IMG/VR virus record: IMGVR_UViG_2663762839_000014
DNA length: 6,296 bases
Strand: one strand, 5' to 3'
DNA from: a virus
Lineage: Duplodnaviria; Heunggongvirae; Uroviricota; Caudoviricetes
Shown: one piece after another, positions 1 to 6,296 of the stretch
How positions within the stretch are numbered: position 1 is the first letter of the stretch
Layout of the letters: every line of letters starts with the position of its first letter
Translations under genes and position numbers: made by a program
Notes under the pieces: model-generated
What the model was told of the DNA's origin: nothing
Databases searched by the model: none
Seen by the model: the letters and a program-made list of their open reading frames with translations, nothing else

Positions 1-624
<624 letters not shown>

Positions 625-670
625 TTATTCAGTCGATAGTAACCCGCCCTTCGGGGATAGCAAGCATTTT

Positions 671-720
671 TTGCAAAAAGGGGTAGATGCAATCGGTTAC
701 GCTCTGTATAATGCCGCGGC
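671..720 (+). promoter_or_regulatory. guaB promoter region: A/T-rich upstream tract, -10 TATAAT at 706..711, GC-rich discriminator GCCGCGGC at 712..719
   Basis: Perfect TATAAT hexamer 45 bp upstream of the guaB ATG, followed by a GC-rich discriminator typical of growth-rate-controlled promoters. The -35 is not confidently assignable by eye. GCAATCGGTTACGC (689..702) between the -35 and -10 positions is a weak candidate for the PurR operator described for guaBA; the match is imperfect. Confidence 0.6.
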
Positions 721-755
721 AATATTTATTAACCACTCTGGTCGAGATATTGCCC

Positions 756-2222
756 ATGCTACGTATCGCTAAAGAAGCTCTGACGTTTGACGACGTTCTC
801 CTCGTTCCTGCTCATTCTACCGTTCTGCCGAATACTGCTGACCTCAGCACCCAGCTGACGAAAACTATTCGTCTGAATATCCCTATGCTTTCCGCAGCAA
901 TGGATACCGTAACGGAAGCGCGCCTGGCTATTGCTCTGGCTCAGGAAGGCGGTATCGGCTTTATCCACAAAAACATGTCCATTGAACGCCAGGCAGAAGA
1001 AGTTCGCCGTGTGAAAAAACACGAATCTGGTGTGGTAACTGATCCGCAGACTGTTCTGCCAACCACGACGCTGCGCGAAGTGAAAGAACTGACCGAGCGT
1101 AACGGTTTTGCGGGCTATCCGGTCGTTACCGAAGAAAACGAACTGGTGGGTATTATCACCGGTCGTGACGTGCGTTTTGTTACCGACCTGAACCAGCCGG
1201 TTAGCGTTTACATGACGCCGAAAGAGCGTCTGGTCACCGTGCGTGAAGGTGAAGCCCGTGAAGTGGTGCTGGCAAAAATGCACGAAAAACGCGTTGAAAA
1301 AGCGCTGGTGGTTGATGACGAATTCCACCTGATCGGCATGATCACCGTGAAAGATTTCCAGAAAGCGGAACGTAAACCGAACGCCTGTAAAGACGAGCAA
1401 GGCCGTCTGCGTGTTGGTGCTGCAGTTGGCGCAGGTGCGGGTAACGAAGAGCGTGTTGACGCGCTGGTTGCCGCTGGCGTTGACGTTCTGCTGATCGACT
1501 CCTCCCACGGTCACTCAGAAGGCGTTTTGCAGCGTATCCGTGAAACCCGTGCTAAATATCCGGATCTGCAAATCATCGGCGGCAACGTGGCAACAGCTGC
1601 AGGTGCACGCGCTCTGGCAGAAGCTGGTTGCAGCGCGGTTAAAGTCGGTATCGGCCCTGGCTCTATCTGTACGACTCGTATCGTGACTGGCGTAGGTGTT
1701 CCGCAGATCACTGCCGTTGCTGACGCAGTTGAAGCGCTGGAAGGCACCGGCATTCCGGTTATCGCTGACGGCGGTATCCGTTTCTCTGGCGACATCGCCA
1801 AAGCTATCGCCGCTGGCGCAAGCGCGGTAATGGTGGGTTCCATGCTGGCAGGTACTGAAGAATCTCCGGGTGAAATTGAACTCTACCAGGGCCGTTCTTA
1901 CAAATCTTACCGTGGGATGGGCTCTCTGGGCGCGATGTCCAAAGGTTCCTCTGACCGTTATTTCCAGAGCGATAACGCTGCCGACAAACTGGTGCCGGAA
2001 GGTATCGAAGGTCGCGTAGCTTATAAAGGTCGCCTGAAAGAGATCATTCACCAGCAGATGGGCGGCCTGCGCTCCTGTATGGGTTTGACCGGCTGTGGTA
2101 CTATCGACGAACTGCGTACTAAAGCGGAGTTTGTACGTATCAGCAGTGCGGGCATTCAGGAAAGCCACGTTCACGACGTGACCATTACTAAAGAGTCCCC
2201 GAACTACCGTCTGGGCTCCTGA
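756..2222 (+). CDS. guaB: IMP dehydrogenase (488 aa)
   Basis: The six-frame ORF 687..2222 contains [23 protein letters not shown]... from the internal ATG at 756, matching E. coli GuaB as I recall it, including the catalytic-loop region [11 protein letters not shown] and the CBS-domain insert. The 23 codons upstream of 756 overlap the promoter and are rejected as the start. Confidence 0.97.
961..969 (+). promoter_or_regulatory. Consensus DnaA box (TTATCCACA) inside the guaB coding region
   Basis: Exact 9-mer TTATCCACA about 200 bp downstream of the guaB start. I recall literature on DnaA-dependent regulation of gua transcription through such a box, but a single 9-mer can also occur by chance. 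Confidence 0.5.
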
Positions 2223-2229
2223 TTCTCTT

Positions 2230-2250
2230 CGCCCGACTTCATGTCGGGCG
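2230..2250 (+). other. guaB-guaA intergenic stem-loop (CGCCCGAC-ttcat-GTCGGGCG)
   Basis: Perfect 8-bp inverted repeat with a 5-nt loop directly after the guaB stop, followed by an A/T-rich stretch rather than a clean U-run. Likely an intra-operon RNA structure (mRNA stability or partial termination). Confidence 0.5.
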
Positions 2251-2290
2251 ATTTATATTATCTGTTTCACTTGCCTCGGAATAAGCGTCA

Positions 2291-3868
2291 ATGACGGAAA
2301 ACATTCATAAGCATCGCATCCTCATTCTGGACTTCGGTTCTCAGTACACTCAACTGGTTGCGCGCCGCGTGCGTGAGCTGGGTGTTTACTGCGAACTGTG
2401 GGCGTGGGATGTGACAGAAGCACAAATTCGTGACTTCAATCCAAGCGGCATTATTCTTTCCGGCGGCCCGGAAAGTACTACTGAAGAAAACAGCCCGCGT
2501 GCGCCGCAGTATGTCTTTGAAGCAGGCGTACCGGTATTCGGCGTTTGCTATGGCATGCAGACCATGGCAATGCAGTTGGGCGGTCACGTTGAAGCCTCTA
2601 ACGAACGTGAATTTGGCTACGCGCAGGTTGAAGTCGTAAACGACAGCGCACTGGTTCGCGGTATCGAAGATGCGCTGACCGCAGACGGTAAACCGCTGCT
2701 CGATGTCTGGATGAGCCACGGCGATAAAGTTACCGCTATCCCGTCCGACTTCATCACCGTAGCCAGCACCGAAAGCTGCCCGTTTGCCATTATGGCTAAC
2801 GAAGAAAAACGCTTCTATGGCGTACAGTTCCACCCGGAAGTGACTCACACCCGCCAGGGTATGCGCATGCTGGAGCGTTTTGTGCGTGATATCTGCCAGT
2901 GTGAAGCCCTGTGGACGCCAGCGAAAATTATCGACGATGCTGTAGCTCGCATCCGCGAGCAGGTAGGCGACGATAAAGTCATCCTCGGCCTCTCTGGTGG
3001 TGTGGATTCCTCCGTAACCGCAATGCTGCTGCACCGCGCTATCGGTAAAAACCTGACTTGCGTATTCGTCGACAACGGCCTGCTGCGTCTCAACGAAGCA
3101 GAGCAGGTTCTGGATATGTTTGGCGATCACTTTGGTCTGAACATTGTTCACGTTCCGGCAGAAGATCGCTTCCTGTCAGCGCTGGCTGGCGAAAACGATC
3201 CGGAAGCAAAACGTAAAATCATCGGTCGCGTTTTCGTTGAAGTATTCGATGAAGAAGCGCTGAAACTGGAAGACGTGAAGTGGCTGGCACAGGGCACCAT
3301 CTACCCTGACGTTATCGAATCTGCGGCGTCTGCAACCGGTAAAGCACACGTCATCAAATCTCACCACAACGTGGGCGGCCTGCCGAAAGAGATGAAGATG
3401 GGCCTGGTTGAACCGCTGAAAGAGCTGTTCAAAGACGAAGTGCGTAAGATTGGTCTGGAGCTGGGCCTGCCATACGACATGCTCTACCGTCACCCGTTCC
3501 CGGGACCGGGCCTCGGCGTTCGTGTACTGGGCGAAGTGAAGAAAGAGTACTGTGACCTGCTGCGCCGTGCTGATGCCATCTTCATTGAAGAGCTGCGTAA
3601 AGCGGATCTGTACGACAAAGTCAGCCAGGCGTTCACTGTCTTCCTGCCGGTACGTTCTGTTGGCGTAATGGGCGATGGTCGTAAATACGACTGGGTTGTC
3701 TCTCTGCGTGCTGTCGAAACCATCGACTTCATGACCGCACACTGGGCGCACCTGCCGTACGATTTCCTCGGTCGCGTTTCCAACCGCATTATCAATGAAG
3801 TGAACGGTATTTCCCGCGTGGTGTATGACATCAGCGGCAAGCCGCCAGCTACCATTGAGTGGGAATGA
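2291..3868 (+). CDS. guaA: GMP synthase, glutamine-hydrolysing (525 aa)
   Basis: ORF 2291..3868 translates to [41 protein letters not shown]..., ending ...[10 protein letters not shown], matching E. coli GuaA. It contains the glutamine amidotransferase region (GVCYGMQ) and the ATP pyrophosphatase P-loop SGGVDSS. Confidence 0.97.
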
Positions 3869-3916
3869 TTAACAGCTAACTCATAGCAAATCATTCCTAT
3901 TCAGATGCCAACTCAA

Positions 3917-3947
3917 CCCTCTGTTTTTGCAGGGGGTTTTTGTTTTT
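3917..3947 (+). terminator. Rho-independent terminator of the guaBA operon
   Basis: CCCTCTG-tttttg-CAGGGGG forms a 7-bp stem with one G-U pair (3917..3936), followed immediately by TTTTTGTTTTT (3937..3947), about 50 bp after the guaA stop. Confidence 0.75.
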
Positions 3948-4003
3948 ATGTATTCATTTCTATTCACTCTATACCATATTTTTCGGCGGTACAGGTGACG
4001 GTA

Positions 4004-4018
4004 TTACCTTAAAGGTAT
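4004..4018 (+). promoter_or_regulatory. Dyad motif copy a: TTACC-ttAAA-GGTAt, upstream of the integrase stub
   Basis: One of three same-orientation copies of TTACC-nnAAA-GGTA(A); the others are at 4960..4974 and 5340..5354. It lies about 45 bp upstream of the integrase GTG start and overlaps a TATACT -10-like hexamer at 4016..4021. Confidence 0.4.
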
Positions 4019-4060
4019 ACTCTCATGCCGTCATGAAAATGGTTTCTATACGGGTGAATT

Positions 4061-4210
4061 GTGCTTACCGATACAAAATTAAAAAACCTCAAGCCGCAGG
4101 ACAAACTGTACAAAGTCTCCGATCGTGACGGGCTGTATGTGGCTGTGCTTACGTCAGGTACGGTCTCGTTTCGCTATGACTACCGTATCAACGGTCGCCG
4201 CGAAACACTG
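4061..4210 (+). pseudogene. Tyrosine recombinase (P4-family integrase) N-terminal stub, about 50 codons
   Basis: From the GTG at 4061 the translation is LTDTKLKNLKPQDKLYKVSDRDGLYVAVLTSGTVSFRYDYRINGRRETL, the conserved N-terminal arm-binding region of P4-like integrases. After about codon 50 the frame continues as unrelated sequence to a stop at 4276, and no catalytic domain is present in any frame. Confidence 0.7.
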
Positions 4211-4690
4211 GTAGCCGGGCTTCAGCGGGGCACTGTAGGTTTTGTTCTCTATCTTCATTGCCTGCATCACTGCTGACGCCGTGGCGTTGGCTACTTGGTC
4301 GGCAACCATCTTTATGCGTTCTTCCTGCGGGAGCGAGTTTTTAATGTAACTTCCGGTGCGGCGGATCTGAGGAAGAACCTCACCTGTAACCCATTTACGA
4401 AAGCGGTAGGGGATAGTGCCTGGTGTTACTGCATCGCGGCAGCGGAGGATCAGTGTGTAGAGGCCTGACTCGGAGATGATGATCGATTCTTGCTCACCGC
4501 CAGGGGTGTCGGTTGAAGCGACGCCCTTCTCATCATCATCAAGTTTTCGAACAGTATCTCGATGGTTTGCTATGCCTATAGCCCGACAAACATCTGAAGC
4601 GATAAACCATGGCTCACCATTAATGACGATTACTCGTATATCGGCTTGGGATTCGAAAGAAAAAATGGACGTGCTTTTTGTAGCTGTCAT
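4154..4690 (-). CDS. Bro-N domain protein (phage antirepressor-like), 178 aa; C-terminal ~19 codons read antisense through the integrase stub
   Basis: Residues about 10-115 (FSFESQADIRVIVINGEPWFIASDVCRAIGIANHRDTVRKLDDDEKG...IISESGLYTLILRCRDAV...FRKWVTGEVLPQIRRTGSY) match the Bro-N signature. RBS AAGG lies 8 nt upstream of the ATG at 4690. Confidence 0.75.
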   Translation of the reverse strand: MTATKSTSIFSFESQADIRVIVINGEPWFIASDVCRAIGIANHRDTVRKLDDDEKGVASTDTPGGEQESIIISESGLYTLILRCRDAVTPGTIPYRFRKWVTGEVLPQIRRTGSYIKNSLPQEERIKMVADQVANATASAVMQAMKIENKTYSAPLKPGYQCFAATVDTVVIAKRDRT

Positions 4691-4723
4691 AGTGGTTACC
4701 TTTTAGTCTGGTTAATCACCACT

Positions 4724-4739
4724 ACCGACGCCAATCGGT
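4724..4739 (-). other. Stem-loop ACCGA-cgccaa-TCGGT (plus-strand reading), sharing its loop with the hairpin at 4887..4904
   Basis: 5-bp perfect stem with a 6-nt loop. The 10-mer GACGCCAATC (4727..4736) is repeated exactly at 4891..4900. Lies in the presumed leader of the Bro-N gene. Confidence 0.3.
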
Positions 4740-4847
4740 TGGTGGTGAACTGCGCAGGGTTGGCGTAACCGGCTAAAAGGACCCGGCGCACCTTTCGGTG
4801 CCCCCACACAGCCCACCATAATACGAATGTGACCGTGCTATACGCAT

Positions 4848-4867
4848 AAAAAAACCGCTTGCGCGGT
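4848..4867 (-). terminator. Rho-independent terminator on the minus strand
   Basis: On the minus strand, ACCGC-gcaa-GCGGU (5-bp stem, GNRA-type loop; plus 4854..4867) is followed by seven U (plus A-run 4848..4854). Positioned to terminate transcripts coming from the 85-codon ORF or the candidate small RNA. Confidence 0.6.
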
Positions 4868-4886
4868 GAATGCGCCTTTTAGTAAT

Positions 4887-4904
4887 CCGGGACGCCAATC
4901 CCGG
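4887..4904 (-). other. Stem-loop CCGGGA-cgccaa-TCCCGG (plus-strand reading), sharing its loop with the hairpin at 4724..4739
   Basis: 6-bp perfect stem with the identical CGCCAA loop. Lies inside the candidate small RNA. Confidence 0.3.
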
Positions 4905-4959
4905 CACTGGCAAAATCCAGTGCCCGATTACTATGGCACAAGAGGAGTGCGATGTAAAT

Positions 4960-4974
4960 TTACCGCAAAGGTAA
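4960..4974 (+). promoter_or_regulatory. Dyad motif copy b: TTACC-gcAAA-GGTAA, overlapping the -10/+1 of the putative minus-strand promoter
   Basis: Perfect 7-bp arms with flanks (ATTTACC / GGTAAAT, 4958..4976). Same core and orientation as the copies at 4004 and 5340. Confidence 0.4.
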
Positions 4975-5002
4975 ATATAAGCACTCCACTTGGTAATTGC
5001 AA
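4974..5002 (-). promoter_or_regulatory. Putative sigma70 promoter on the minus strand (TTGCAA - 17 bp - TATATT)
   Basis: -35 at 5002..4997 and -10 at 4979..4974 with a 17-bp spacer, starting directly after the stop codon of the 85-codon ORF. Hexamer match only; a chance occurrence in AT-rich DNA is possible. Confidence 0.3.
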
Positions 5003-5005
5003 ACC

Positions 5006-5263
5006 TTATATGGTTTGTTTTCGTAATTGTTCGGCACAATAGTCGAGATGTGTTTGCAGATCCTGCATAGACATCTGTGAGCTGGTGACGTAGTTAATCA
5101 GTGCAGTCAGTTCGGCAAGTGGGCCATCGACATTAAATCCATCCTTATCGAGATCCCGGAGTAATTTCATCAAGTGCGATCCCTCCACCAGTGACCTGAC
5201 GCCTCCCGGCGTGTGAATCCTTTCGGTAAATCCGTCTTCCAGTGGATAGTGATACTGCTGCAT
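5006..5263 (-). CDS. Hypothetical 85-aa acidic protein, predicted SOS (LexA)-regulated
   Basis: ORF with ATG at 5263, SD GGAG 8 nt upstream (plus 5272..5275), and a near-consensus LexA box 20-40 bp upstream of the ATG. No family recognised from the sequence MQQYHYPLEDGFTERIHTPGG... Coding status is inferred from the RBS and box context only. Confidence 0.5.
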   Translation of the reverse strand: MQQYHYPLEDGFTERIHTPGGVRSLVEGSHLMKLLRDLDKDGFNVDGPLAELTALINYVTSSQMSMQDLQTHLDYCAEQLRKQTI

Positions 5264-5282
5264 CTTATCTTCTCCATGTAAT

Positions 5283-5302
5283 AACTGTATATTTATACAG
5301 TA
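5283..5302. promoter_or_regulatory. LexA (SOS) box AACTGTATATTTATACAGTA
   Basis: CTGT-N8-ACAG with an A/T-rich spacer; 18 of 20 positions match the E. coli consensus TACTGTATATATATACAGTA. It lies in the divergent region between the 85-codon ORF (minus) and the tailspike gene (plus), and overlaps a TATAAA -10-like hexamer in the minus orientation. Confidence 0.75.
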
Positions 5303-5303
5303 T

Positions 5304-5318
5304 CAAACAATTTGTTTG
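5304..5318. promoter_or_regulatory. 15-bp palindrome CAAACAA-t-TTGTTTG adjacent to the LexA box
   Basis: Perfect 7-bp inverted arms around a single central base, immediately next to the SOS box and over the expected -35/spacer region of the minus-strand promoter. Candidate operator for a dimeric regulator. Confidence 0.3.
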
Positions 5319-5339
5319 CTATCCAGCACGTTTTGCGAA

Positions 5340-5354
5340 TTACCTGAAAGGTAA
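5340..5354 (+). promoter_or_regulatory. Dyad motif copy c: TTACC-tgAAA-GGTAA, in the divergent regulatory region
   Basis: Perfect 6-bp arms with flanks (ATTACC / GGTAAT, 5339..5355). Same core and orientation as the copies at 4004 and 4960. Confidence 0.4.
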
Positions 5355-5458
5355 TGTCTATTCGTGTTCACAGTATTTCTATACATATATGGTTTTTAGG
5401 GTAATAGAATAACCAGATGTGCGGCGCAACGGGTGCTGCGACTATCTGGAGATTTAAC

Positions 5459-6296
5459 ATGACGGTCTCAACCGAAATTGACCACAACGAATACACCGGT
5501 AACGGTGTTACAACGATATACCCTTATACCTTTAGGATTTTCCAGAAATCTGATTTAGTAGTGCAGGTTGTTGACCTGAACGAGAACATCACAGAGCTGA
5601 TTCTTGACACTGATTACATAGTTACTGGGCTGGAGGATACAATGGTGGCAATATAATTCTGTCGAAGGCATTGGTTAGCGGTTATCAGATTTCTATATCA
5701 CGAGAGCTTCCGGTTACGCAGGAAACTGATTTGCGTAATCAGGGTAAGTTCTTTGCAGAAGTGCATGAGGATGCTTTTGATAAGCTAACGATGCTGATCC
5801 AGCAGGTTCGAAGTTGGTTTAGCTTGGCGCTGCGCAAGCCGTCAAGTATTGCTAACTGGTACGATGCACTAAATAATTACATCCGTAATCTGAGAGACCC
5901 TAGAGAACCTCAAGATGCAGCCACGAAAAATTATGTTGATACTCTGGCTGTTGGAAATTTCATTCGAACATTACGTGTACCTGAACCTGTCAGGCAGTTC
6001 CCTGATGCAGCAATACGCGCCAACAAGATTCCTGCCTTCGACAGTTCCGGCAATCCGATTGTGGTTTTGCCTCCATCTGGTTCTGCTTCTGACATTATGA
6101 TAGAACTTGCTAAACCAACAGGTGCTGACCATATTGGTACATCATCAGGTGAAACTGTGCAGCATGTAATCGACCGACTTTATCTTCCAAATGATCCCCG
6201 TGGTTATGGCGCACTAACAGAGTCAACAGATAATACCCAAGCGTTCATTCAGGCGATTTATGCTTCACCTAGTGGAATTGTCATAAGGGGAGGTAT
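5459..6296 (+). pseudogene. Phage tailspike / tail-fibre protein, 5' part, interrupted by a -1 frameshift in a G-run at 5627..5629; continues beyond the window
   Basis: From ATG 5459 (SD GGAG 8 nt upstream) the frame reads MTVSTEIDHNEYTGNGVTTIYPYTFRIF...DYIVTG and stops at 5654. The adjacent frame is open from 5614 to the window end (over 225 codons: AGGYNGGNIILSKALVSGYQISISRELPVTQETDLRNQGKFF...). The two frames join if GGG at 5627..5629 was originally GGGG. The last part (PRGYGALTESTDNTQAFIQAI) resembles the start of a pectate-lyase-fold depolymerase domain. Could be a true pseudogene or a homopolymer sequencing error. Confidence 0.7.

Follow-up and report, generated by a model that had tools for sequence, protein, structure and literature searches.

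Phages phiV10, epsilon15 and vB_EcoP_ZX5, members of the genus Uetakevirus, have their published attachment site at the 3' end of guaA, with the attP/attB core attgagtgggaatgatt (PMC9782041), and insertion in guaA has likewise been reported for phage TL-2011b (PMC3293862). The phages of the phiV10 group (phiV10, TL-2011b, vB_EcoP_ZX5 and the O157 typing phages 9 and 10) have an identical 17-bp core. The end of guaA is thus a standard non-tRNA attachment site for the P4-type integrases of epsilon15/phiV10-like phages. It is also used by the GIsul2 island, whose insertion site, GAGTGGGA (PMC9376610), falls inside the same core, so that elements of different kinds have this target in common; GIsul2 carries unrelated cargo (sul2, CR2 and transfer genes). 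Two known regulatory systems are relevant as well: the antirepressor Ant of phage SPC32H, described as being under LexA control (Kim and Ryu 2013, as cited in PMC7380047), and the immI region of P1 and P7, in which the c4 RNA controls icd-ant.

Here we analyzed a 6,296-bp stretch of Escherichia coli DNA (hereafter, the window), which is the entire draft contig CDRI01000453.1 of assembly GCA_000946855.1. The window contains the left end of a decayed prophage of the epsilon15/phiV10 group of short-tailed phages, located at the already published guaA attachment site (Table 1). Under the reading that we consider about 95% probable, judging from sequence comparisons, a Uetakevirus podophage integrated at the guaA core, lost approximately 32-33 kb between two GGTA tetranucleotides, and then lost 1 bp of the tailspike gene.

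Table 1. Features of the prophage remnant and its junction with guaA (window coordinates)
Feature	Position	Strand	Basis or detail
attL core ATTGAGTGGGAATGATT	3854..3870		17 bp; last four guaA codons (I-E-W-E), TGA and TT
Phage P' arm of attP, core to integrase start	3871..4060	+	nearly base-for-base alignment with phiV10 attP-int and UTME-3 attL
Phage-borne intrinsic terminator, now ending the guaBA transcript	3915..3948	+	10 stem pairs and T run in scan
Operator-like palindrome TTACCTTAAAGGTAT, upstream of int	4004..4018		one mismatch to TTACC-N5-GGTAA
Integrase stub, first 51 codons of P4-type tyrosine integrase, GTG start	4061..4213	+	Pfam Arm-DNA-bind_3
Bro-N family gene (phiV10 gp23 homolog), C-terminally truncated	4154..4690	-	Pfam Bro-N, E 6e-21
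Deletion junction, GGTA microhomology of int and Bro-N gene	4210..4213		both parental sequences compared
C4-type antisense RNA	4738..4823	-	Rfam RF01695; a' loop 4766-4760, b' loop 4780-4773
isrK-matching leader with a1 (4898-4892) and b1 (4882-4875) targets	4848..4936	-	Rfam
Operator-like palindrome TTACCGCAAAGGTAA	4960..4974		overlaps minus-strand promoter-like hexamers
Intact small antirepressor, 85 aa (epsilon15 gp19/phiV10 gp24 homolog)	5006..5263	-	PDB, PHROG, synteny
LexA (SOS) box AACTGTATATTTATACAGTA	5283..5302		between -35-like TTGATA and -10-like TATTAC of antirepressor gene
Operator-like palindrome TTACCTGAAAGGTAA	5340..5354		between antirepressor and tailspike genes
Tailspike gene, first ~279 codons, cut by contig end	5460..6296	+	PHROG tail families, E 8e-148

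The attachment core and the terminator

The core in the window is letter-for-letter identical to the published core of phiV10, epsilon15 and vB_EcoP_ZX5, and alignment of attB, attL and attR shows it to be the sole stretch common to the three. It occurs once in the window; a second copy, attR, adjoins yfgI in a related locus (L001, 20421-20437) and can also be aligned in E. coli UTME-3, the attR copies being known from relatives only. Window positions 3854-4075 match phiV10 26715-26945 nearly base for base (mean column identity of 94% across the three-sequence alignment as a whole), with most of the differences falling to the left of the core. The match to empty-site genomes, in contrast, ends at 3870, two bases past the guaA stop codon, and the P' arm is missing from these genomes. 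On these alignments, the element starts at 3871, directly after the core, and not at 3948, and the terminator downstream of guaA belongs to the phage. In phiV10, the corresponding feature (26781-26813) carries a terminator annotation, and the native guaA/yfgI terminator, AAAACCCTCTGTTACTACAGAGGGTTTTTT, is found by alignment at attR, beside yfgI, in occupied genomes.

In a set of 5,426 complete E. coli genomes, int lies directly 3' of guaA in 568 (about 10%), and in the occupied genomes full prophages sit between guaA and yfgI, the same position as in the phiV10 group. The three closest chromosomal relatives, with backbones at 99.8% identity, have the empty site, with yfgI located 92 bp after guaA. 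The possibility of an overlooked tRNA or tmRNA at this junction was rejected, as ARAGORN detected none in the window, nor did a permissive Rfam scan at E<=1; with the attachment core in the coding end of guaA, a tRNA is neither needed nor expected.

The sequence-only reading had described a prophage-like element inserted after the guaBA terminator, from 3948, with no tRNA at the junction. The element is real and the tRNA is indeed lacking, but the boundary has to be moved, because host homology ends upstream of the terminator. Among the three locations it had offered for the attachment site, the 3' end of guaA proved correct, whereas the terminator and the 3948-4060 interval are not. Its tentative suggestion that some temperate podophages attach at the 3' end of guaA agrees with the published sites (PMC9782041, PMC3293862), and the core, together with the phage-group matches, supports its proposal of a P4-type integrase using a non-tRNA site in a degraded temperate podophage. 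The empty-site alleles and the attR direct repeat, which it had suggested seeking, were both found in related genomes.

The internal deletion and the tailspike gene

Phage matches in megablast were TL-2011b (95.6% identity), phiV10 (91.5%) and epsilon15 (77%). Gene order and orientation follow phiV10 gp23-gp25, that is, Bro-N and the small antirepressor on the minus strand, divergent from a tailspike gene with an epsilon15-type N-terminal domain. Together with the core at the host/element junction and the homology of the adjoining arm and integrase to attP-int, this arrangement assigns the element to the Uetakevirus prophages that reside at guaA. The attP arm and the 5' end of int are nearly identical to those of the phiV10 group, from which the remnant differs in its integrase of 51 codons, its C-terminally truncated Bro-N and its frameshifted tailspike gene.

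The integrase gene starts 113 bp after the terminator hairpin, close to the 115 bp estimated from the sequence alone, and its alignment stops at 4213. Only positions 1-49 of the 83 in the Arm-DNA-bind_3 profile are matched (E 1.5e-10). The full-length homolog in UTME-3 (416 aa) additionally contains Phage_int_M and Phage_integrase domains; the catalytic Phage_integrase domain is deleted in the stub, which thus lacks the two-domain composition of P4-type integrases. On the other side of the junction, the Bro-N open reading frame consists of approximately 159 phage-derived codons followed by 19 codons antisense to the integrase stub, and it is identical to phiV10 gp23 at 159 of 163 residues (98%), diverging at the junction. 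The distance between the two GGTA copies is 33,311 bp in the UTME-3 prophage and 31,778 bp in the phiV10 genome taken as a circle. Comparison of both parental sequences with the window indicates that a single deletion within the prophage, approximately 32-33 kb long, fused the integrase gene at codon 51 to the 3' portion of the Bro-N gene. In terms of the 39,104-bp phiV10 genome, 31,778 bp (about 81%) are missing, and the repressor, replication, packaging and virion genes that make up a complete set all fall inside the 31.8-33.3 kb deletion. The element is a remnant, not a functional Uetakevirus prophage, and probably is no longer able to excise or form particles. Its degraded state, deduced earlier from the integrase stub and the tailspike frameshift, is borne out.

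Relative to three intact homologs (phiV10 and two E. coli prophages), the tailspike gene has lost 1 bp between 5628 and 5629, a frameshift also visible in three-frame translation. With the frame corrected, the N-terminal part shares 68% identity with epsilon15 gp20; a P22-like origin was ruled out, given this epsilon15-type N-terminal part and nucleotide matches to Uetakevirus phages only. The suggestion that the tailspike could stem from a guaA-using phage was correct, as searches trace both it and Bro-N to the Uetakevirus group. The distal, receptor-binding part, from about 6020, has a single match above 80% identity among the 5,426 complete E. coli genomes and is thus unlike that of all but one of them.

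The right end of the element lies past the contig, so that the full extent of the remnant and its attR are deduced from relatives; beyond the window would be the rest of the tailspike gene, any O-antigen modification genes, lysis genes and attR. As the last bases of the window still align to a tailspike homolog, no IS end is visible at the contig break. None of the 5,426 complete E. coli genomes covers at least 80% of either the window as a whole or positions 3860-6296, and a search among them for the same deleted form found none; the junction thus rests on one strain.

These data bear on three other explanations. The first, in which short-read assembly of an intact prophage produced the int/Bro-N junction and the frameshift of the tailspike gene as artefacts, would fit a short draft contig ending within that gene, and the 1-bp frameshift could indeed be an assembly error. 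However, an overlap of 4 bp is much shorter than would be needed to mislead an assembler, and both features are identical in the only two contigs returned by an exact-protein look-up, one from NCBI and one a Logan contig of run ERR738831, which may share reads; the Logan contig extends farther on the xseA side, and the two assemblies end at the same tailspike base. We regard an artefact as very improbable. An origin of the integrase stub from one element and of the Bro-N-to-tailspike block from another, in tandem or nested insertion, is about equally hard to sustain. Uetakevirus prophages are mosaic, and the best matches of the two sides differ (98.8% to UTME-3 on the guaA-int side, 95.6% to TL-2011b on the Bro-tailspike side), yet both blocks retain the order and orientation of a single prophage and meet at a clean 4-bp microhomology junction, with no second attachment core, IS element or extra DNA. 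Given this order and this junction, one deletion suffices. Least likely of all, to the point of being almost negligible, is a GIsul2-type or other non-phage island targeting the 3' end of guaA: the GIsul2 site does lie within the 17-bp core, but the core-adjacent arm and the integrase stub are those of phiV10 attP-int nearly base for base, the remaining genes are syntenic with phiV10 gp23-gp25, and the window contains neither resistance nor transfer genes.

The integrated and subsequently deleted podophage remains our preferred explanation. In the proposed sequence of events, the order of which is inferred, a temperate Uetakevirus podophage integrated in the E. coli chromosome through recombination by its P4-type tyrosine integrase at the core that spans the stop codon of guaA. 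The core copy brought in by the phage restores an identical GuaA C-terminus, and the adjoining arm supplies a terminator, with the native one displaced to attR, so that guaBA would stay properly terminated. A later illegitimate deletion between the GGTA copies removed the bulk of int together with the genes for recombination, the repressor and replication, as well as every packaging, head and tail gene in the deleted stretch, and a further loss of 1 bp shifted the tailspike reading frame.

The surviving regulatory block

The 85-aa product of the gene next to the tailspike matches chain E of PDB entry 5d50, 'Anti-repressor protein' (E 4e-47, residues 2-84), and phrog_450 (E 2e-47), and is syntenic with gp19 and gp24; the homology to 5D50 chain E is shared with the Salmonella phages epsilon15 and SPC32H, although their host species differs from that of the window. 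The LexA box, located 20 bp upstream of the start codon, agrees with the consensus at 18 of 20 positions, is the sole CTGT-N8-ACAG in the window (0.07 expected), and has conserved counterparts in phiV10, epsilon15 and two E. coli prophages. Homology to Ant combined with a LexA box in the promoter predicts LexA control of the SPC32H Ant type.

The three operator-like palindromes compare with 0.09 expected in the window, and none of 200 shuffles reached three. The epsilon15 counterpart of TTACCTGAAAGGTAA, ATTACCTGTAAGGTAAT, is annotated as a repressor binding site in AY150271, beside an IHF site; this operator, like the LexA box, is conserved between epsilon15 and the window.

The Bro-N open reading frame also matches PHROG anti-repressor families and is preceded by a c4 RNA that scores 75.7 bits against RF01695 (gathering score 45) over model positions 1-87 of 87. 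Its loops are exactly complementary to the targets a2 (4734-4728) and b2 (4706-4699), the latter 8 nt before the Bro-N ATG. The upstream leader scores 60 bits as isrK (gathering score 50) and 27.9 bits as c4-a1b1, under the gathering score of 46.7, and has its own terminator-like hairpin (4867-4854) followed by a U run. This layout, with a1/b1, c4 with a'/b' loops, and a2/b2 over the downstream ribosome-binding site, is that of P1/P7 immI, except that the downstream gene there is P1 Ant, whereas in this podophage remnant it encodes a Bro-N protein, without icd; the control is predicted from the sequence. The Bro-N/c4 insert is missing from epsilon15, which has no Bro-N gene annotated between gp18 and gp19 and is gapped in the alignment across the intergenic region between Bro-N and the antirepressor, which includes the c4 RNA and the isrK-like leader. 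Altogether, the surviving regulatory DNA spans 1.2 kb and is dense with elements matching known parts; the impression of dense regulatory content in the first inspection is upheld by the LexA box, the three palindromes, and the c4 RNA with its targets.

Implications

The finding itself is already known and ordinary, as it concerns a known phage group at its published attachment site, and has little significance beyond correct annotation. The int, Bro-N and tailspike open reading frames of this strain should be annotated as pseudogene fragments of a single deleted prophage. The terminator 3' of guaA in lysogens is phage DNA, which also matters for annotation, and the remnant is a compact natural example of a host terminator replaced by a phage-supplied one. 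In addition, it illustrates how an SOS/antirepressor block can survive the loss of the prophage that carried it.

With the cognate repressor gene gone, the surviving block, comprising the LexA box and the 85-aa Ant gene, the operators, and the c4 RNA with Bro-N, could still be expressed. Given the loss of its own repressor and the retention of an intact, predicted SOS-controlled Ant and a predicted c4-RNA-gated Bro-N with the whole domain, the remnant may, after DNA damage, act in trans on repressors of incoming or resident Uetakevirus-type phages, a tentative proposal that we consider unlikely. Domesticated antirepressor modules have been shown for the Gifsy and Fels prophages. If the proposal is true, repressor targeting would force such phages into lytic growth or block lysogeny, and the remnant would represent another module of this kind.

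A degraded prophage at the guaA locus of Escherichia coli

The window is draft contig CDRI01000453.1 (assembly GCA_000946855.1) over its entire length of 6,296 bp, and the Logan assembly of run ERR738831 contains an identical sequence, extended on the xseA side only. The backbone is that of E. coli: each of the 5,426 complete E. coli genomes matched positions 1-3870, at best with 99.8% identity. Among phage records, nucleotide matches were obtained to TL-2011b (95.6%), phiV10 (91.5%), O157 typing phages 9 and 10, and vB_EcoP_ZX5, with a more distant match to Salmonella phage epsilon15 (77%); every matched phage whose classification was checked belongs to the genus Uetakevirus. The element is a degraded Uetakevirus prophage that occupies the canonical, published attachment site of this group.

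The integrase gene of this element is located directly 3' of guaA in 568 of the 5,426 complete genomes, and in the remaining ones the match ends where the attachment core ends. Full prophages of about 39 kb are present between guaA and yfgI in CP8-3, UTME-3, and MARGA_3. In the three nearest backbones (14EC033, 100416, and CUWW06), the match to the window reaches base 3870 only; in 14EC033, guaA is followed by 92 bp and then yfgI. The relatives are not all syntenic, empty sites exist, and core repeats flank the UTME-3 prophage, so that the mobile-element interpretation proposed in the sequence-only reading stands. The terminator, integrase stub, Bro-N ORF, and tailspike frameshift described there were all found in the window, the left boundary being the part of the description that failed.

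In the longer Logan contig (L005), a 636-aa ORF is encoded on the minus strand at 7148-9058, directly after xseA and outside the window. At this position, K-12 presumably carries the small yfgJ gene followed by der. A second island may lie on the other side of guaBA, past xseA.

Features of the window, in order of position
Feature	Position	Strand	Details
xseA	5' end in window		E. coli backbone
guaB	ORF to 2222		start annotated in relatives corresponds to ~756
guaA	2291-3868
Attachment core ATTGAGTGGGAATGATT	3854-3870		I-E-W-E codons of guaA, TGA stop, and TT
Terminator-like hairpin and T run	3915-3948		counterpart annotated as terminator in phiV10 record
Operator-like palindrome	4004-4018		one mismatch; upstream of int
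Integrase stub	from GTG 4061	plus	71-codon ORF; residues 1-51 match N-terminal half of Pfam Arm-DNA-bind_3
Bro-N ORF	4690-4154	minus
Downstream c4 targets	a2 4734-4728, b2 4706-4699	minus
C4 antisense RNA	4823-4738	minus	full length; RF01695, 75.7 bits (gathering score 45)
Upstream c4 targets	a1 4898-4892, b1 4882-4875	minus
isrK-like leader	4936-4848	minus	carries a1/b1 target copies; ends in terminator-like hairpin
Operator-like palindrome TTACCGCAAAGGTAA	4960-4974		overlaps promoter-like hexamers
Small antirepressor homolog (Ant)	5263-5006	minus	intact 85-aa ORF; PDB 5D50 chain E "Anti-repressor protein", E 4e-47
LexA box AACTGTATATTTATACAGTA	5283-5302		18/20 consensus positions
Operator palindrome TTACCTGAAAGGTAA	5340-5354		epsilon15 counterpart annotated as repressor binding site, adjoining IHF site
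Tailspike-like gene	from 5460	plus	stop at 5654-5656, continues in another frame

Attachment site and left boundary

Four sequences were aligned: the BLR(DE3) empty site (L003), the window, attL of the UTME-3 prophage, and the far end of that prophage (attR). The core, ATTGAGTGGGAATGATT, is the sole sequence common to all four; to its left, the window tracks the host guaA, and to its right is phage DNA. The attP-int region of phiV10 aligns with window positions 3854-4075 almost base for base, including the hairpin, and the native guaA/yfgI terminator, AAAACCCTCTGTTACTACAGAGGGTTTTTT, comes after the core both at empty sites and at attR. Because the core lies at the guaA stop codon and the DNA to its right, terminator included, comes from the phage, insertion did not occur after the guaBA terminator, as had been proposed from the sequence alone. 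Insertion took place at the guaA stop codon, and the phage supplied a terminator of its own. The GuaA protein sequence is unaltered by the insertion.

The phage-borne terminator (window 3915-3941) was compared with those at attB in L003 (~3296-3325) and attR in L002. By manual count from the alignment, 25 of 27 positions are identical between the phage and host terminators, which share the same 7-bp stem, and the core-to-terminator spacers are unlike (47 nt in the phage-borne version vs 27 nt in the native one). The near identity of the terminators suggests that the attP arm derives from a captured guaA 3' flank.

The absence of a tRNA at the junction, noted earlier, is upheld: neither ARAGORN nor a permissive Rfam scan detected a tRNA or tmRNA in the window. 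Phages phiV10, epsilon15, and vB_EcoP_ZX5 have attgagtgggaatgatt as their published attP core, with the guaA 3' end as attB, and the attB, attL, and attR junctions of ZX5 have been sequenced (PMC9782041). TL-2011b is reportedly inserted in guaA (PMC3293862), and the genomic island GIsul2 targets GAGTGGGA, within the same core (PMC9376610). Thus, the suggestion in the sequence-only reading that some temperate podophages of enterobacteria use the guaA 3' region proved right, and the finding is not new; the proposed degraded temperate podophage at this site is supported, with the position of the crossover and the origin of the terminator corrected.

The internal deletion and the tailspike gene

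The alignment to the integrase stops at 4213 and that to Bro-N starts at 4210, the parental sequences sharing GGTA alone. The GGTA copies are 33,311 bp apart in the UTME-3 prophage and 31,778 bp apart on the 39,104-bp phiV10 circle. As in intact prophages, int is on the plus strand and Bro-N on the minus strand, so that one deletion suffices to account for this structure. Lost with it were the catalytic part of int (the 416-aa UTME-3 homolog additionally contains the Pfam domains Phage_int_M and Phage_integrase), a gene annotated as an AlpA-family regulator, recombination genes, a helix-turn-helix repressor, replication genes, and every packaging and virion gene. Of the normal at least 194 residues, the Bro-N product retains 159, with 159 of 163 residues identical to phiV10 gp23; its last 19 residues come from the antisense strand of int. 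Not one of the 5,426 complete genomes of E. coli carries this deletion.

Alignment with three intact homologs places the loss of one base in the tailspike gene between 5628 and 5629. Once the frame is corrected, the 279 N-terminal residues share 68% identity with epsilon15 gp20 and match PHROG tail families (E down to 8e-148). From ~6020 on, the sequence departs from nearly all E. coli prophages, and this divergent stretch corresponds to the part expected to bind the receptor in a serotype-specific way. Because the start of the distal part (6020-6296) was matched at >80% identity in only one of the 5,426 complete genomes, MARGA_3 (81.5%), the receptor bound is probably an unusual one. In MARGA_3, the counterpart gene encodes a beta-helix protein of 922 aa, and an acyltransferase gene, lysis genes, and yfgI come after it. 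Both the NCBI and Logan ERR738831 contigs end inside the tailspike gene, at window position 6296 (L005 position 1), with no IS end visible at the break; possible causes are reduced coverage or a second copy of the distal tailspike sequence at another place in the genome.

Regulatory content of the remnant

The regulatory content had been described as dense, and this holds: operators, a LexA box, an Ant ORF, and a c4 RNA were found, and each has a described match. None of 200 shuffles reached the three palindrome sites present in the window. Compared with phiV10, the spacer of one operator (4965-4969) reads GCAAA instead of TTTGC, and a hairpin loop (4911-4916) reads CAAAAT instead of ATTTTG, exact reverse complements in both cases. 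Such reverse-complemented palindrome centers are a putative hallmark of inversion by template switching inside hairpins.

The c4 loops, ACGCCAA and CCUUUUAG, exactly complement the two target pairs, and b2 overlies the Bro-N ribosome-binding site, 8 nt ahead of the ATG. The order of upstream targets, c4, and downstream targets is the same as in immI of phage P1; judging from this layout, the podophage remnant contains a predicted complete immI-style antisense switch.

The LexA box, conserved in phiV10, epsilon15, and two E. coli prophages, is placed between -35-like TTGATA and -10-like TATTAC. The structure matched by the 85-aa ORF, 5D50, shows Rep in complex with Ant from SPC32H, a temperate phage of Salmonella. 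The near-consensus LexA box precedes the intact ant ORF, and the cognate repressor gene is deleted from the remnant. Published accounts cite LexA control of Ant production in SPC32H (PMC7380047) and describe how Ant acts on tetrameric Rep (PMC9638917). The orphaned antirepressor, predicted to be SOS-controlled, might together with the c4/Bro-N module still affect other phages in trans.
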